A stretch of 59,653 bases of DNA, the filler included. It is 5 parts of 5 records of this genome, joined end to end, with 100 filler letters (N's around TTAATTAATTAA, not from the genome) between each part and the next. Parts side by side here need not be neighbours in the genome. Positions count along the whole stretch, not along the records: positions 47,178 to 53,543 come from DRR723986_3507; 4 more parts are not named here. One strand, 5' to 3'. The notes beneath the pieces are model-generated. The model saw nothing but the letters and a program-made list of their open reading frames with translations, ran no database searches and had not been told where the DNA came from. Each line of letters starts with the position of its first letter. Positions within the stretch are counted from its first letter, which is position 1. Both the position numbers and the translations under genes were made by a program. This document shows, one piece after another, positions 22,489 to 53,643 of this stretch.

Positions 22489-22588
22489 NNNNNNNNNNNN
22501 NNNNNNNNNNNNNNNNNNNNNNNNNNNNNNNNTTAATTAATTAANNNNNNNNNNNNNNNNNNNNNNNNNNNNNNNNNNNNNNNNNNNN
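22489..22588. other. Artificial contig linker
   Basis: 44 N + TTAATTAATTAA (stops in all six frames) + 44 N; identical at four places. Confidence 0.98.
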
Positions 22589-39628: not shown

Positions 39629-39728
39629 NNNNNNNNNNNNNNNNNNNNNNNNNNNNNNNNNNNNNNNNNNNNTTAATTAATTAANNNNNNNNNNNNNNNN
39701 NNNNNNNNNNNNNNNNNNNNNNNNNNNN
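39629..39728. other. Artificial contig linker
   Basis: 44 N + TTAATTAATTAA + 44 N. Confidence 0.98.
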
Positions 39729-47077: not shown

Positions 47078-47177
47078 NNNNNNNNNNNNNNNNNNNNNNN
47101 NNNNNNNNNNNNNNNNNNNNNTTAATTAATTAANNNNNNNNNNNNNNNNNNNNNNNNNNNNNNNNNNNNNNNNNNNN
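47078..47177. other. Artificial contig linker
   Basis: 44 N + TTAATTAATTAA + 44 N. Confidence 0.98.
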
Positions 47178-47206
47178 CCGCGCCATCAGCGCCGCCGGTG
47201 AAGGGG

Positions 47207-47235
47207 TATCTATGGCTTTCCTCTGGGGGCCGCAA
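47207..47235 (-). promoter_or_regulatory. Probable rRNA operon promoter firing off the left contig end
   Basis: Minus strand TTGCGG-17 bp-TAGATA then CCCCTTCACCGGCGGCGCTGA, with A-tracts upstream; resembles Rhodobacteraceae rrn promoters. Confidence 0.65.
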
Positions 47236-47382
47236 CCCCTTTTTTATTCCTTTGTCGTATTTTTTTCAAAAAACATGATTTTCTTTGAGTTTCAGTGGCT
47301 TGTGGAAATTTGATTGCGCTTTTGCCCTCGTGTAGGCATGAAAATTACCCAAGCCCACAGCACCCCTTCACAACATATTGGG

Positions 47383-47403
47383 TTATCCCCAGAGTTATCC
47401 CCA
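47383..47403 (+). repeat. Two tandem DnaA-box-like 9-mers
   Basis: TTATCCCCA at 47383-47391 and 47395-47403, each 8/9 to TTATCCACA. Confidence 0.55.
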
Positions 47404-47438
47404 ATCTGTGCCGAGTCGCCCCTGCCTTGTGCGCATAC

Positions 47439-48050
47439 TTACCCTAGGCTGGCCCGCCGATTCCGTGATTTGCGCCCCATGCGCAGCGCCAAAAGCAGCA
47501 AAATCGCCCCAAGCCACACGATTGGCTGCAGCTGCCAGCCCTTTGCTTGCATCACATAATGCAGCCCACCCAGCACAATCGCTGGATAGGTCAGCTTGTG
47601 CAGTTGCCCCCAGCGGGGCCCAAGGCGGCGCTGTGCGGCATTGGTGGAGGTCGCCGCCAAAGGCAGCAACAGCAAAAAAGCGGCCATGCCCACAGTTATA
47701 TAGGGGCGCTTTACAATGTCGGCCCAAATCGCCGTGACGCTGGCAATATCCAACACCAGCCACACCAAGAGATGCGCCACAACATAGACAAAGCCCATAA
47801 CCCCAGCCGCCCTGCGAAATCGCAGCAGGTTGATACCCAAATTCCTGCGCAGCGGCGTGATGGCCAAAGAGGCCACAAGATAGGCCAAGGCCACCTGCCC
47901 ATATAAATGTTCCAAAGCACGGATAGGTTCAGGCCCCAGCGCCCCGGTAAGCCCCTGCCAGAAGAACACCGGCAAGGGCACCGCCATACATATATATACG
48001 GCCCATGTCGGCACATGGCGCAGGGCGTGATTTAGCCTGTCGCGCAGCAC
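47439..48050 (-). CDS. msrQ: Methionine sulfoxide reductase heme-binding subunit MsrQ
   Basis: LAITPLRR, FRRAAG, KRPYITVG, LAATS, WGQLHKLTY. Confidence 0.93.
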   Translation of the reverse strand: MLRDRLNHALRHVPTWAVYICMAVPLPVFFWQGLTGALGPEPIRALEHLYGQVALAYLVASLAITPLRRNLGINLLRFRRAAGVMGFVYVVAHLLVWLVLDIASVTAIWADIVKRPYITVGMAAFLLLLPLAATSTNAAQRRLGPRWGQLHKLTYPAIVLGGLHYVMQAKGWQLQPIVWLGAILLLLALRMGRKSRNRRASLG

Positions 48051-48052
48051 GG

Positions 48053-48961
48053 TTAAAACTGCGCCTTCAGATCCATTCCCTTGTAAAGGCTGGCCACATC
48101 ACTGGCATAGCCATTCATCATAAGGGTTGGTTGCCGGCTGGCAAACAGGCCCCCGCCAATGCGCCGCTCTTGGGCTTGGCTCCAGCGTGGGTGGTCCACC
48201 TGCGGGTTGACGTTGCTGTAAAACCCGTATTCGCGGGGGTTGGCCTTGTTCCAGCTGGTGGGGGGCTGCCTGTCGGTTAGGGTGATGCGCACCACCGACT
48301 TGATCGATTTAAACCCATATTTCCATGGCACCACCAAACGCAGGGGCGCACCGTTTTGTGCCGGGATGTCGCGGCCATAAATACCGCTGGCCATGATGGT
48401 TAGCGGGTGCATCGCCTCGTCCAGGCGCAAGCCCTCGACATAGGGCCAATCGAGCACGGGATAGCGGGTGCCGGGCATTTCATCGCGGTTGAGATAGGTT
48501 TCAAAGGCAACATAGCGCGCATTGGCCTGCACCCCGGCCATTTCAAGCAGATCGGCCAGCTCGAACCCGTTCCATGGCACCACCATCGACCATGCCTCGA
48601 CACAGCGAAACCGGTAGATCCGCTCTTCGATTTGCATGCGGGCCAAGATATCTTCGATCGCATAGTCGCCGGGCCTATCGACCATACCATCGATGCGGAT
48701 GCTCCATGGCGATATGGTCATTTGCCCGGCATATTTGGCGGGATCGTCTTTGCCTGTGCCGAATTCATAAAAGTTGTTGTAGCTGGTGATATCTTCCCAA
48801 GAATTGGGGGCCAGCCCCTGCGCCTGCGCCGCTTGCGGCAGGCCCGCGGCCCCCATCAGCCCCGCGCCCGCCATGCCAGCCAACAGGTGGCGGCGGTTCA
48901 GCCATAGGGTTTCATCCGTTACATCGCTGGGCTTTAGGGTGTTTTTCCATCTCTGGGCCAT
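48053..48961 (-). CDS. msrP: Methionine sulfoxide reductase catalytic subunit MsrP
   Basis: Tat-like [48 protein letters not shown]; start ATG 48961. Confidence 0.95.
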
Positions 48962-49147
48962 GGCTGCCTCGGTTTGCGTGTCAACTAAGGCAAAGCTAAC
49001 GCAGGCACGGGCTGCATCCAACGCAAGCTTTCTCACAGTTGCGTGGCTGCATTGAAACGTTTTGCGGTTTGACATGGAACAAAGCCACGCAAAGGATGCA
49101 CCTTATAAAGACACGCAGCGCAGGCCATTGCCTAAGGAGTTGTATGA

Positions 49148-49585
49148 ATGAAACGATTGATCATTGCCGCCACGCTGGCCCTTAGCGTGGGCGCGGCCCA
49201 TGCCGATGGGATGGTGACATATGAAACCCAAGACAGTTTCGAAGATGTCGTGTTTGGGCTGGAAAACGCCATTCTTGATCTGGGGCTGGTGGTGGATCAT
49301 GTCTCGCACACGGGCGAGATGCTGGAACGCACCAAGGCCGATGTGGGCGGCACCGTTACCCTGTTTACCCAGGCCGATGTTTATTCCTTTTGCTCGGCCG
49401 CGCTGAGCCGCAAGGTGATGGAGGCCGATCCGATGAATCTGCGCTTTTGCCCTTACGATATTTTCGTGGCCCAACAGCCCGGCCAGCCGGTGATCATCGG
49501 CTATCGCACCTTCCCCGAGGGCGCGATGCAAGAGGTTCAGGCCATGCTCGATGGCATCGCCCGCACTGCCATTGGGCTGGATTGA
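49148..49585 (+). CDS. DUF302 domain secreted protein
   Basis: Signal peptide, FCSA and FCPY motifs; RBS AAGGAG. Confidence 0.8.
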   Translation: MKRLIIAATLALSVGAAHADGMVTYETQDSFEDVVFGLENAILDLGLVVDHVSHTGEMLERTKADVGGTVTLFTQADVYSFCSAALSRKVMEADPMNLRFCPYDIFVAQQPGQPVIIGYRTFPEGAMQEVQAMLDGIARTAIGLD

Positions 49586-49692
49586 TCACAGCGGCTAACG
49601 CCTGCTCACGATTATTCTATTCGACGGCGCAAAAAGGCGTGGCTTAGCAGCGCGCCTTTTCAAATCAAGCCCTGCACAAATATTTGAGGCAC

Positions 49693-49718
49693 GCATCCAC
49701 CCCCGGTTTTCCACCGTA
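49693..49718 (+). promoter_or_regulatory. Candidate ECF (RpoE-type) promoter of the fasciclin gene
   Basis: GCATCC-16 bp-CGTA about 50 nt upstream of ATG 49769. Confidence 0.4.
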
Positions 49719-49768
49719 AGCCAAACGATGCAACACAACGCATCCCCTTATCAGTGGAGAGAAAACAC

Positions 49769-50254
49769 ATGTTTCGTAGAACCTACCTTGGACTGACTGC
49801 TGCCCTCATGATCGCCGGCCCAGCCTTTGCCGGGGGGCATTCGAAAGATATCGTAGATACCGCCGTAGGCGCCGGCAGCTTTGGCACATTGGTGGCGGCA
49901 GTGCAGGCCGCAGGCCTTGTTGATACGCTCAAGGGCGAAGGCCCCTTCACCGTATTCGCGCCCACCGATGCAGCCTTTGCCGCCCTGCCCGCAGGCACCG
50001 TAGAAGAGCTGCTGAAACCCGAAAACAAAGACAAGCTGACCGCCATCCTGACCTACCACGTTGTGGCTGGCAAAGTGATGTCGGGCGATCTGTCTGATGG
50101 CCTAAGCGCCGCCACCGTGAATGGCGCCAACATCACCATCGGCACCATGGGCGGCGTAACCGTAAACGGCGCCAACGTGACCCAAGCCGATATCGAGGCA
50201 TCCAACGGCGTGATCCACGTGATCGACGCAGTCATCCTGCCGCCCGAAGGCTAA
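49769..50254 (+). CDS. Fasciclin (FAS1) domain protein
   Basis: Signal peptide, [30 protein letters not shown]. Confidence 0.95.
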
Positions 50255-50273
50255 GCAAAGCGCGAACCCACAG

Positions 50274-50302
50274 AAAAAGGCGGGGCAAGCCCCGCCTTTT
50301 TT
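50274..50302 (+). terminator. Rho-independent terminator after the fasciclin gene
   Basis: AAAAAGGCGGGGC-AA-GCCCCGCCTTTTTT. Confidence 0.88.
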
Positions 50303-50355
50303 ATGCCAGCGCCCGAGCTGGCGGTGGGGGGCTGGGTGATGTGGAAATGCACGCT

Positions 50356-50457
50356 TTGGGCGGGTGGTGGAGGTTGCGAAGTTGTGAGCCGAGGCCGCTG
50401 TTTGTGGTGGTCGAGGCCCTGAGCGGGCGTTCGTTTCTGATGCAGCCAATGTCTGCT
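50356..50457 (+). repeat. Left arm of the imperfect inverted repeat flanking the RT gene
   Basis: 50421-50457 matches the reverse complement of 52432-52467 at 31/37; 50356-50377 matches the reverse complement of 52501-52523 at 19/23 (manual alignment). Confidence 0.75.
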
Positions 50458-50710
50458 CAGAGCCCATTGTGACCGGCGCTGCGCTTTTAGTGAACGGTTT
50501 CGAACCTCGAATTGCTGCCATTGAACTTTGCTGTGCGGCCCAAATCCGGCCCACAGCTAACAATCTCCACGTGAAGATCCGGTCAACCCAACTGGGGTTT
50601 CACTTGAGGAGCATGCGTCTTGTTCAAGCACCAAGAAGATTGGGAAGCTTAGCCAATTTTTTTACAGGAAACTACTGTTGGTGGCCGCGCTTCCGACTTA
50701 AGCTAGCGCC

Positions 50711-52306
50711 ATGAAGTCTCGGTTCAGTTTAATAAATTCAGGTCTCTATCCTGAGACGCTACCTCCATGCTTTGTGTCAAAAGACGCAAAGCGCGCCTTT
50801 CATGGTCTCGTTGGTGCACTTGACAGCAACAAGTTCCACGATAAAAAGACGGAGTATGTTCGGTATAGCGGAACCAAGCATGACGGCAGTCGCCGCTTTT
50901 TCGGCACTCCCAACATCGTCTCCTACTTTCACGTTTCTAGTTTCATATGGAAGAACTGGGGACATTTTGAAGCCAACTACGCCTTATCACCATATTCTAT
51001 TGGCACGCCCAAGATTATGGATGAGGGCGAAGAACGAGCGGTTAAAGTTCCATCGCTTTCCGAGCTTTCGAAGCGGGCTTCGAAAAACCTGCGATACGCA
51101 CCCTTCGTTTTGAAGGCCGACATCGCTCAATGCTTCCCGAGCATCTACACGCATTCCATTGCTTGGGCCGCTCATGGAATTGAAGAGTCAAAGCTGGACA
51201 CGAACAAGGTTTCCAGCAGCAACTTCTTCAACGCGCTCGATTTCTTTGTTCGGAATGGGCAACGCGGAAACACGCGAGGGGTATTGGTCGGACCCGATGC
51301 ATACCGTCTGATCGCAGAATTCGTCTTGGCCAAAATCGATCACGAACTGAGCAAAGTCGTTGGTGACATGGTGGTCGGGGCGGTGCGCCACGTAGATGAT
51401 TATTACATTGGCCTTCAGACTGAACACGACGCACAATCGGTTCTTTCGCATTTGCGCGAGGTGCTTGCGACCTTCGAGTTGAACCTCAATGACCAGAAAA
51501 CGAAGATTCACTCAAGCTTGGACCCAATCAACGATCTTTGGGCGCAACGGCTGCGAGACCACATGAACTTCTTCGGATCTCATGTGGAGCACAGCAGGCT
51601 TGAACGCGCCATCACCGAGGCTGTCACGTCTGCTCAAGAGATAGGATCGGACAGTCCAATCAAAATCCTATTCCGGTCTTTTGACGAAGGGCGGGTCTAT
51701 AATTCACCCCAGTGGGATTTTGTTGAGCAAAATATTCAGAGGATCGTTCAGAAACATCCGCATGCAATTGACTACGCCTGTTTGCTCGTTGCGAAGCGCA
51801 AAGCGCGGGGGTTGGCCATCGACACGGAAGGTTGGCTTGCCGTCGCGGAGATCATTGTCAGGCGCAGTCTTGCACTAAACCATCATCATGAGGCGCTGTG
51901 GTTGGTTTGGTTGCTCATCGTTTGCGACATCCCGGTTCCGGTGCCGATGGTGGAAGAACTTGCGAAGTCCAAAAACGCACATATTCGCGCTTTGCTCGTG
52001 CAGGCGCATGTAGACAGCAAGCTCACCCGAAAACCGAAGCTTGCTCTAGGTGCTCCTCTTTCATCAGTGGATGCCAACTGGTTGGTTAATCTCGTTGCAC
52101 GCTCTCAAGAGTTTTCAAGGGCCGCCTTTTCCGGTCGTTACACTGACGAATTTGAGCACCTGGCCAGCAGGCACATCAAGCTCATAGATTTTGAAGACCA
52201 TATCAGTCGGATAACAGAACAAGACAGGCGAGCAATTAGTCGAACCAGATACGGATATGATGACGACGAGGATGACAACTTTGATCCTGACGACTGGGAA
52301 ATTTAA
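50711..52306 (+). CDS. Reverse transcriptase-like polymerase of the Abi/UG class 1 (DRT/AbiK-like) type; probable anti-phage protein
   Basis: GLYPETLPPCF N-terminus; KADIAQCFPSIYTHSIAWA (D137); GVLVGPDAYRLIAE; RHVDDY (D229, D230); LNLNDQKT; long helical C-terminal domain; more AT-rich than the flanking genes. Confidence 0.88.
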   Translation: MKSRFSLINSGLYPETLPPCFVSKDAKRAFHGLVGALDSNKFHDKKTEYVRYSGTKHDGSRRFFGTPNIVSYFHVSSFIWKNWGHFEANYALSPYSIGTPKIMDEGEERAVKVPSLSELSKRASKNLRYAPFVLKADIAQCFPSIYTHSIAWAAHGIEESKLDTNKVSSSNFFNALDFFVRNGQRGNTRGVLVGPDAYRLIAEFVLAKIDHELSKVVGDMVVGAVRHVDDYYIGLQTEHDAQSVLSHLREVLATFELNLNDQKTKIHSSLDPINDLWAQRLRDHMNFFGSHVEHSRLERAITEAVTSAQEIGSDSPIKILFRSFDEGRVYNSPQWDFVEQNIQRIVQKHPHAIDYACLLVAKRKARGLAIDTEGWLAVAEIIVRRSLALNHHHEALWLVWLLIVCDIPVPVPMVEELAKSKNAHIRALLVQAHVDSKLTRKPKLALGAPLSSVDANWLVNLVARSQEFSRAAFSGRYTDEFEHLASRHIKLIDFEDHISRITEQDRRAISRTRYGYDDDEDDNFDPDDWEI

Positions 52307-52431
52307 GAATGTGCGGAGCCGACTTTTTAGGGAAAGTAAGATTCAGGTGACGAACCTTGTACGTTTAGCGTCAGTAGTGAATGCGCGCAGGCCGCATTAG
52401 GAACTTTGCGCTGCAGTCTCATTGCACTGAA

Positions 52432-52523
52432 AGCAGACCTTGGCGCAACAGCAGCGAAAGCCCGCTCCGTCCCACTCAGCAGACCTCTGTGCAAAGTGCA
52501 GCAAAACTCCACTCCCCGCCCAA
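52432..52523 (-). repeat. Right arm of the inverted repeat, built of two ~46-bp tandem units
   Basis: AGCAGACCT at 52432 and 52478, each followed by GCAA...GCAGC(G/A)AAA...CTCC; reverse complement matches 50356-50457. Confidence 0.75.
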
Positions 52524-52632
52524 CCCTGTCGAAACGGTATAAACGCCGCGTTGCTGCATTAATGCCCGCTGTGGGCTTGGCGGCGGTTGCATCGCTTTTG
52601 TGTCGCCCCCATAGCCCGCTGGCAGATATATT

Positions 52633-52664
52633 AAAAAAACAGGCGGCCTTTGGGGCCGCCTGTT
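52633..52664 (-). terminator. Rho-independent terminator of clpB
   Basis: AACAGGCGGCC / GGCCGCCTGTT stem with an A7 tract (U-tract on the minus strand). Confidence 0.85.
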
Positions 52665-52670
52665 GGGGGG

Positions 52671-53543
52671 TTAGTGCACCACCGCGTCATTGGGTTTGGG
52701 GCGGTTGGTGGCGGCCAGTTTGCTGCCAATCACCAGCCCCTCGCTGCCCGCTGATATGGGCAGCGTGGCGCCCTCGGCGATGTCGCCTGCCAGCAGCATT
52801 TCGGCCAGCGGGTCTTGCACCGTGCGCTGGATCACCCGTTTCAGGGGGCGTGCGCCAAACACCGGGTCGTAGCCCTCGTCGGCCAGCCATTTGCGCGCCT
52901 CTGGATCGACGGCCAGCGTAATATTGCGCCCCGCCAGCCGCTTTTGCAGCCGCGCCAGCTGGATATCGACGATACCGCCCATATCGGCGCGGGCCAGGCG
53001 ATCGAAGATGATGGTTTCATCCAGGCGGTTCAGGAATTCGGGGCGGAAATGGGCCCGCACCGCATCCATCACATCACGCTTGGCGCTGGCGGCATCGGCG
53101 CCATCGGGCAGCTGGCTTAGCGCCTGCGCGCCCAGGTTCGATGTCAGCACAATCAGCGTTTGCTTGAAATCCACCGTGCGGCCCTGGCCATCGGTCAGCA
53201 CCCCATCATCGAGCACCTGCAGCAGCACGTTGAACACATCGGGGTGGGCCTTTTCCACCTCGTCAAACAGCACCACCTGATAGGGCCGGCGGCGCACGGC
53301 CTCGGTCAGCACCCCGCCCTCGTCATAGCCCACATAGCCAGGGGGCGCCCCGATCAGCCGCGATACGGCGTGTTTTTCCATGAATTCAGACATATCGATG
53401 CGCACCATCGCATTGTCATCATCAAACAAAAACTCGGCCACGGCCTTGGTCAGCTCGGTTTTGCCCACACCCGTCGGGCCCAAGAACAAAAACGAGCCCA
53501 GCGGCCGGTTTTCATCGTTCAGCCCCGCCCGCGCCCGGCGCAC
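52671..53543 (-). CDS. clpB: Chaperone ClpB, C-terminal AAA domain (5'-truncated)
   Basis: [57 protein letters not shown]. Confidence 0.95.
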
Positions 53544-53643
53544 NNNNNNNNNNNNNNNNNNNNNNNNNNNNNNNNNNNNNNNNNNNNTTAATTAATTAAN
53601 NNNNNNNNNNNNNNNNNNNNNNNNNNNNNNNNNNNNNNNNNNN
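53544..53643. other. Artificial contig linker
   Basis: 44 N + TTAATTAATTAA + 44 N. Confidence 0.98.

Follow-up and report, generated by a model that had tools for sequence, protein, structure and literature searches.

A DRT6-family polymerase with HVDD in place of YxDD: a labile motif position and a testable variant of the active-site pocket

Introduction

Does a histidine at the first position of the YxDD motif mark a reverse transcriptase (RT) of altered specificity, or is it an error, a sign of decay or ordinary variation? The question was raised by a stretch of 59,653 nucleotides (the window), in which five parts of one genome are joined end to end. Four N gaps separate them (22489-22588, 39629-39728, 47078-47177 and 53544-53643), and genes across gaps are not necessarily neighbours. 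The piece from 47178 to 53543 (DRR723986_3507) encodes an RT-like polymerase. The initial annotation took its HVDD motif, together with two unusual residues in motif 4, as one remodelling of the polymerase pocket which might lead to a homopolymeric, protein-templated or ribonucleotide product.

Of the related systems, DRT6 (UG12) turned out to be the closest. UG12 proteins are enriched in defence contexts and protect against phages (PMC9226505); protection depends on catalysis (PMC9226505, PMC12783706), the studied members being outside the query's branch. The studied DRT6 makes a template-independent, protein-linked DNA product; T5 ORF55 activates it, and in cells lacking sbcB it is toxic (PMC12783706). 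A hexamer making protein-linked DNA has been shown for the Sphingopyxis protein only. Experiments on members of the query's DRT6 branch were not found in the literature searched.

Materials and methods

The search found 373 homologues, and the 120 listed (50-93% identity) were aligned. A wider set was drawn from 3,353 representatives at 50% identity by taking the best 150 in order of similarity to the query; 139 of these had an aligned DD pair. The tree comprised 123 near-full-length rows and was rooted at the midpoint; fragments and rows without the N-terminus or without a catalytic Asp were dropped. Background was taken from PMC12783706, PMC13174585, PMC13213688, PMC9226505, PMC13314766, PMC9508834 and bioRxiv 10.64898/2026.10.21.760695, and from the bioRxiv preprints 2026.10.27.754916, 2026.04.18.719102, 2026.02.16.706125 and 2026.04.29.721553.

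Results

Direct translation of the open reading frame gave D137 (GAC, 51119-51121), the motif-4 stretch G190-V-L192-V-G-P-D-A-Y198-R199 and H227 (CAC, 51389-51391) followed by V228-D229-D230. The motifs and the three retained catalytic aspartates had thus been read correctly. D137, D229 and D230 are invariant in alignment A1; among the 120 listed of 373 homologues, D229/D230 and H227 were each present in 120/120. Of 22 genome loci, 9 encode the histidine by CAC and 13 by CAT. Contigs from 4/4 runs (four studies; three of the runs are possible sources of the window) covered codon 227 without any differing letter, and the exact protein sequence was found on 15 public contigs. Contigs of run X17, whose RNA label is a guess, covered parts of the gene. 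dN/dS was 0.195 versus Pontivivens and 0.048 versus Nitratireductor; the remaining 5/7 pairs were saturated at synonymous sites. The RT gene is under purifying selection, and the motif is a genuine feature of long standing that selection has kept. Because it is fixed in all 120 listed close homologues, His227 is under local selection. A private mutation or assembly error, against which the initial annotation had cautioned, can be discarded, and its view of a change at the polymerase pocket rather than decay agrees with conservation and a dN/dS of 0.05-0.2. Close homologues with YVDD throughout and reads with TAC, which would have spoken for the opposite, were not what was seen.

Table 1. Features of the RT-like gene and its flanks (positions along the window).
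Feature	Position	Strand	Basis
Inverted repeat, imperfect, left arm	50356..50473	.	flank-vs-flank comparison, 67% over 121 columns, E 6e-8
RT-like polymerase gene, 531 aa	50711..52306	+	ORF call; single-gene DRT6 (UG12), class 1 UG/Abi
E15-T16	50753..50758	+	motif alignment; T16 aligned with Drt3b gate Glu (E22/E26) and DRT4 residue 29
R62, equivalent of DRT4 R75	50894..50896	+	alignment; invariant in alignment A1
Motif A: catalytic D137, steric-gate F142	51119..51136	+	translation; same offset as Drt3b D182/F187
H148, equivalent of DRT4 H160 (RNase HD pair)	51152..51154	+	alignment
D177, equivalent of DRT4 D192 (RNase HD pair)	51239..51241	+	alignment
Variant motif 4 GVLVGPDAYR: L192 and Y198 subclade markers; R199 at Drt3b switch-Arg column	51278..51307	+	translation, alignments, tree
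HVDD catalytic motif, H227/D229/D230	51389..51400	+	translation, homologues, run contigs
N260 and K263, equivalents of DRT4 N271 and K274 (dNTP binding)	51488..51499	+	alignment
Region with helical elements	51533..52225	+	structure model; full-length fold match to DRT6 and DRT4
AISRTRYGY motif, conserved; Y516 (52256-52258) candidate priming Tyr	52232..52258	+	homologue counts
Acidic disordered tail, hydrophobic last residue	52259..52303	+	pLDDT <50 for residues 517-531
Inverted repeat, imperfect, right arm	52416..52523	.	flank-vs-flank comparison, 67% over 121 columns, E 6e-8

The family was assigned by profiles and by a structure model. The PADLOC Drt6 model scored best, with 477 bits over residues 3-524, followed by a model with 262 bits; profile A1 gave 536 bits on the solved DRT6 (9wy8) versus 262 on DRT4. 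The scores for the NCBIfam equivalogs Drt4 (192 bits, cut-off 450) and Drt3b (99 bits, cut-off 350) stayed below threshold. The structure was modelled with a pLDDT of 94 from 130 aligned sequences, and its best Foldseek match was 9wy8, 'hexameric DRT6' (TM 0.84/0.90, rmsd 2.8, 22% identity in the fold alignment); DRT4 (TM ~0.75) and AbiK (TM 0.57) matched less well. By these profiles and the predicted fold the query is a single-gene DRT6 (UG12) class 1 RT with an intact polymerase site. With the Sphingopyxis DRT6 (PHR10625.1; 9wy8) it shares whole-length profile and fold, the single gene, the combination of RT and alpha-Rep, three catalytic Asp, the HD pair and an acidic tail with one Tyr. The catalytic pair of 9wy8 is D223/D224 after the tag, a numbering equal to that of the experimentally studied protein. 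The Sphingopyxis protein belongs to a different branch and has YVDD, GLPIGPDTSH and I-Q at positions 15-16, whereas the query has HVDD, GVLVGPDAYR and E-T.

The query also has counterparts of R75, N271, K274, D149, D240, D241, H160 and D192 of DRT4 (UG15; E. coli; 9vdo and others), in which R75 positions the incoming dNTP and N271/K274 bind it (PMC12783706). It differs from DRT4 in that the insertion carrying Q23/K24/S26 is missing and the Ser of the 199 column is Arg. In the DRT4 structure 21ou residue 29 is Glu, called D29 in one preprint; a strain difference or a naming slip is possible. Across the tree, 28 rows were sampled, and for 24 of them Drt6 was the top-scoring model. The other four, P0200, P0226, P0244 and P0258, were best matched by older PADLOC 'Drt4' models; PDLC02177/PDLC02179 (named Drt4) score above the Drt6 model; P0258 has 416 bits to the solved DRT6 versus 88 to DRT4. 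As judged by these scores, PDLC02177 and PDLC02179 may include UG12 sequences.

How unusual is the histidine within the family? In the 139 aligned sequences from the best 150 of 3,353 representatives, the first residue of the YxDD motif was His in 59, Tyr in 47, Phe in 14, Leu in 9, Asn in 4, Val in 4, Gln in 1 and Ala in 1; because the set was ranked by likeness to the query, His is probably over-counted. Outside the query's clade, rows with Ser198 (n = 116, same representatives) had at position 227 His in 42, Tyr in 41, Phe in 14, Leu in 9, Asn in 4, Val in 4, Gln in 1 and Ala in 1. On the 123-row tree position 227 requires a minimum of 36 changes and the switch between His and non-His 16, compared with 3 for aromatic 198 and 7 for non-Pro192. 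Within the clade there are sister proteins that differ only in His versus Tyr (e.g. P0122 and P0124). On these sequence counts, His at the first YxDD position is ordinary for DRT6 and the position is labile. Since only 47/139 of these representatives have it, Tyr is not a defining DRT6 feature.

The position nevertheless matters, because in AbiK the mutation Y245A abolishes long products. In DRT4 the YxDD Tyr stacks on the 3' base (PMC12783706; bioRxiv 10.64898/2026.10.21.760695), and by analogy His may plausibly stack there as Tyr does; Leu, Val and Asn are also tolerated in DRT6-like proteins. In the literature searched, 'HVDD' together with reverse transcriptase was not found, and the YxDD/HxDD histidine was absent from titles and abstracts; the DRT6 cryo-EM paper (BBRC 2025) and Rong et al. 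(Science 2026), both outside the search, may report motif variation.

The proposal of a single remodelling comprising H227, L192 and Y198 did not survive. In the 120 listed of 373 homologues, position 192 was Leu in 105, Ile in 11, Pro in 2 and Val in 2, and position 198 Tyr in 67, Phe in 48 and His in 5. Among the best 150 of 3,353 representatives, 55 with His227 had both motifs readable; 42 of these keep Ser198, 37 Pro192 and Ser198. Conversely, 5/18 representatives of the variant-motif clade have YVDD. The three residues were therefore not acquired in one event, nor are they conserved together as a clade, His and non-His having switched at least 16 times on the tree. A comparison of 13 independent pairs with unlike residues at 227, a test of low power, showed a matching change at position 198 in ~1 and at position 192 in ~0.2. 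The coupled signature was rejected mainly on the cross-tables. The description of motif 4 as deviating from related RTs held for DRT4 (GVPIGPATS), the solved DRT6 (GLPIGPDTS) and AbiK (GIPTGNLLS). It did not hold for Drt3b, which also has no motif-4 Pro (GVIIGPEIS, GIIIGPEFS), nor for Abi-P2, which has no Ser.

In the tree the query resides in a 21-row clade (SH-aLRT 99) within a 52-row branch (100), separate from a 71-row branch. The studied and solved DRT6 is closest to the 71-row branch, with 416 and 400 bits to two of its proteins versus 128 to the query. In the 52-row branch, residue 15 is acidic in 52/52, residue 199 is R/K in 52/52 and His227 occurs in 42/52; in the 71-row branch Glu16 is found in 55/71 and Arg199 in 15/71. 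The 21-row clade adds non-Pro192, aromatic 198 (20/21), T/V16 and the motif AISRTRYGY. Among the 120 listed of 373 homologues, 112 cover the N-terminal site and have E15 in 112/112 and T16 in 104/112; R199 is present in 120/120. L192, aromatic 198 and the E15/T16 shift thus mark the subclade in the alignments and may shift its base preference; the type of reaction is most likely unchanged by the motif-4 and E15/T16 changes.

Base selection in class 1 enzymes is often strong and is brought about by pocket side chains; DRT4 uses purines, Drt3b makes dC-dA and DRT7 dT. R199 aligns with R241 of Drt3b (R349 in 26cz, which has a 108-residue tag; the same offset yields E22 and Y276) and with R253 of 9z6y. 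In Drt3b, the alternation of dC and dA is imposed by R241, which acts as a switch together with the gate E22 (PMC13174585). R253 and E26 of 9z6y, located by the alignments made here, have the corresponding roles. R595 of DRT7, which reads thymine, is located 29 residues before the YVDD Tyr, compared with 28 between R199 and H227 (a likeness of offset only). At the 199 column DRT4, with its random or purine-rich product, has Ser, the studied DRT6 His and Abi-P2 Asp. Drt3b (UG8; protein-templated poly(dC-dA); 26cz, 9z6y) further resembles the query in the missing Pro192, the steric-gate offset and a C-terminal Tyr on which it primes (PMC13174585). From these likenesses one can construct a subclade of protein-templated polymerases with a sequence-defined product, a pyrimidine-containing homopolymer or a short repeat, in which R199 would read the base, E15 would be a relocated gate and non-Pro192/aromatic 198 would reposition the R199 helix.

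The control is AbiK of Lactococcus lactis pSRQ800 (7r06). It is a class 1 hexameric untemplated polymerase with YVDD and the HD pair, is primed on Tyr44 and has the lower fold match mentioned above. Its motif 4, GIPTGNLLSR, has Arg at the R199 column, yet it incorporates all four dNTPs indiscriminately. Because AbiK makes random DNA with the same Arg, Arg199 permits templating and does not imply it, and R199 was rejected as sufficient proof of protein templating. Moreover, the acidic residue of the query is one position before the gate-Glu column (E15, not 16), the gate-Glu column itself being Thr or Val in the query clade (Thr16 in the query). Drt3b has YVDD and Ser198 and works with a Drt3a partner and an ncRNA, whereas the query has neither, and in 22 loci no partner RT or ncRNA was seen to supply a complementary strand. 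R199 and the loss of acidic 16 were not coupled in 6 independent pairs, too few for a test. In the alignments R199 with the E15/T16 gate is a better clue to specificity than the three residues originally noted, weakened by AbiK. A protein-templated subclade is therefore conceivable and in our estimate rather unlikely. We are equally doubtful of the broader version, that a widespread DRT6 branch consists of stand-alone protein-templated polymerases in which R199/E15 would pick bases and Tyr516 would prime, with no RNA or partner. We prefer an untemplated DNA polymerase, as detailed in the Discussion.

DRT4 primes on Tyr125 in the palm, for which the query clade has no counterpart: a Tyr was not found in residues 108-122 in any of the 21 clade rows (0/21). 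AbiK primes on Tyr44 in the fingers. Y516, at the end of AISRTRYGY, is present in 115/115 full-length close homologues (among the 120 listed of 373), in 16/16 representatives with the motif and in 21/21 clade rows. Position 514 is less strict, with F or W in 6/16 of the same representatives. By its conservation and by analogy to Drt3b, we infer that Y516 is a candidate priming residue. Tails of the wider set are richer in Tyr than expected by chance, with a Tyr in the last four residues in 31/65 rows of the 71-row branch versus 8.7 expected. In the part of PMC12783706 that was searched, a DRT6 priming residue was not given; the BBRC 2025 structure and Rong et al. 2026 may give it, and the product as well.

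The tails of homologues have a median of 52% Asp/Glu, and 39/115 close homologues (among the 120 listed of 373) end in Phe (background 5.5%). In sister clades 17/27 tails end in Phe, 9 of them in Pro-Phe; examples of Phe-ended acidic tails are P0134, P0138, P0143, P0151, P0168 and P0189. They resemble the DDIPF tip of SSB, and by this analogy the acidic tails might attract proteins that interact with SSB, e.g. ExoI, or act as binding sites for phage triggers. In the titles and abstracts searched, an SSB-like tip on DRT6 tails was not reported. The HD pair, H148/D177, is kept in 133/133 representatives covering both residues (best 150 of 3,353). In DRT4 the equivalent H160/D192 is an RNase (bioRxiv 10.64898/2026.10.21.760695). 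Because AbiK and Drt3b carry the same pair, RNase activity of H148/D177 is only a possibility; for AbiK or Drt3b such an activity was not reported in the literature searched.

In the window the RT gene has no other gene beside it in the interval that separates a fasciclin gene (terminator 50282-50298) from the end of a gene for a Clp-type ATPase, presumably clpB (terminator 52638-52664). It is flanked by a repeat of ~120 nt, inverted in the window, and looks like part of a repeat-bounded cassette system. The same gene is found between direct repeats in Pontivivens (125 nt; L001:238-362 and 2406-2530) and Maritimibacter (117 nt; L004 flanks). In the Pontivivens genome this repeat is matched 9 times, with 5 of the matches clustered within ~51 kb at one contig end. 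The left arm of the window was not found in the genomes of three relatives. The segment 50441-52470 is common to the window and Pontivivens, at a different site. In run X4, window-identical contigs break at both ends of 50256-52665 and have a depth of ~7 versus 22-38 in the neighbouring gene, while runs X6 and X10 have one even contig over the segment. This hints weakly at a cassette carried by part of the population only, contig depth not being copy number.

In 22 alphaproteobacterial and other proteobacterial loci, neither a conserved neighbour nor synteny was detected. When the flanks of these loci were compared by BLAST, the matches were confined to the nearest relative, to repeats within a locus and to neighbouring genes, and no ncRNA or partner emerged; 7 weak Rfam matches were all under the gathering scores, and 5 matches between neighbour proteins of different loci were unrelated housekeeping or relaxase pairs. 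Sigma-70-like promoters were not found in 50200-52750 (0 versus 1.5 expected). A close copy, i.e. a record covering 80% of the query, was absent from 72,556 plasmids and 50,697 phages. The 40 neighbours scanned include some type I/ISP restriction, AIPR, relaxase, ArdC, prophage capsid, RES, Fic and transposase genes, many housekeeping genes and 11 without a Pfam hit. At one locus (L006:626-6632) the RT starts 11 bp after the gene of a type I restriction subunit R, and at another (L020:1739-6632) it follows a restriction-modification gene of type ISP at a distance of ~115 bp, in both cases on the same strand. In a Sphingomonas MAG (L022:5001-5462) the relative stops 153 residues past the match start and is probably broken or frameshifted.

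Do such surroundings speak for a role outside defence? An active polymerase with a function in, e.g., DNA repair or another domesticated function would be in keeping with a gene that is alone among housekeeping genes in the window and in several loci (uvrB, mutL, gyrase/topoisomerase IV, glyS, malic enzyme). However, the host sites differ and are not syntenic in the 22 loci, GC3 is 0.57 in the RT gene versus 0.64-0.79 in 9 nearby genes, other copies adjoin restriction and mobile genes, and UG12 is the defence-enriched, phage-protective group introduced above (PMC9226505). We regard a non-defence role as improbable; the context fits a mobile single-gene defence cassette.

Discussion

Direct support exists for the family and fold, for the presence of all residues that bind metal or dNTP and of the steric gate, for purifying selection and for the single-gene organisation; some of the loci also have surroundings of a mobile or defence type. 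By analogy to the studied relatives the query is probably a hexameric, self-primed, untemplated ssDNA polymerase of defence with some base bias of its own. The DRT6-family protein would assemble into hexamers and make single-stranded DNA without a template, primed probably on its own Tyr516. Extrapolating from DRT4 and the studied DRT6, a host exonuclease would trim the product; a phage ssDNA-binding protein would protect or engage it and trigger the response. Abortive infection would follow, possibly via the H148/D177 pair. The exonuclease check and the phage ssDNA-binding trigger have been shown for the studied DRT6 and DRT4 (DRT6: PMC12783706). His227 would be an acceptable substitute for the 3'-base-stacking Tyr, an exchange that has recurred in the family. 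Several points argue against this reading: the solved DRT6 comes from the other branch, His227 is fixed in the listed close homologues, Y245A costs AbiK its long products, base choice in class 1 enzymes is often set by the pocket, and the HD pair is shared with AbiK and Drt3b.

An RNA product formed by ribonucleotide addition had also been considered, on the general idea that changes in a pocket can alter sugar selection. The steric gate, F142, is intact, and its position is F/Y in 119/120 listed homologues and in 134/134 representatives (best 150 of 3,353). Its counterpart in Drt3b touches the sugar (PMC13174585), and that in DRT7 is called steric gate. Because the gate is kept, RNA as a product is highly improbable. 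A sequencing error at the His codon, or decay of the gene, has next to no probability: CAC is one base from TAC and 1/22 related loci (L022) stops early, but 4/4 runs agree, His occurs in 120/120 listed homologues with both codons in use, and dN/dS is 0.05-0.2.

We are thus left with an untemplated DRT6 polymerase as the preferred reading. The feature is real and belongs to a known family, and the pocket of the subclade together with the candidate priming Tyr constitutes a testable variant. That the first YxDD position is freely variable in DRT6 is a modest finding. In addition, the pocket of the subclade differs from the solved DRT6 at positions which set base choice in DRT4, Drt3b and DRT7, and the C-terminal Tyr makes a definite proposal as to where DRT6 is primed. 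Which side chains are needed to make a protein-templated polymerase out of an untemplated one is a current question, and the subclade offers an inexpensive natural test of it. With a sequence-defined product, the enzyme would amount to a protein-templated DNA writer encoded by one gene.
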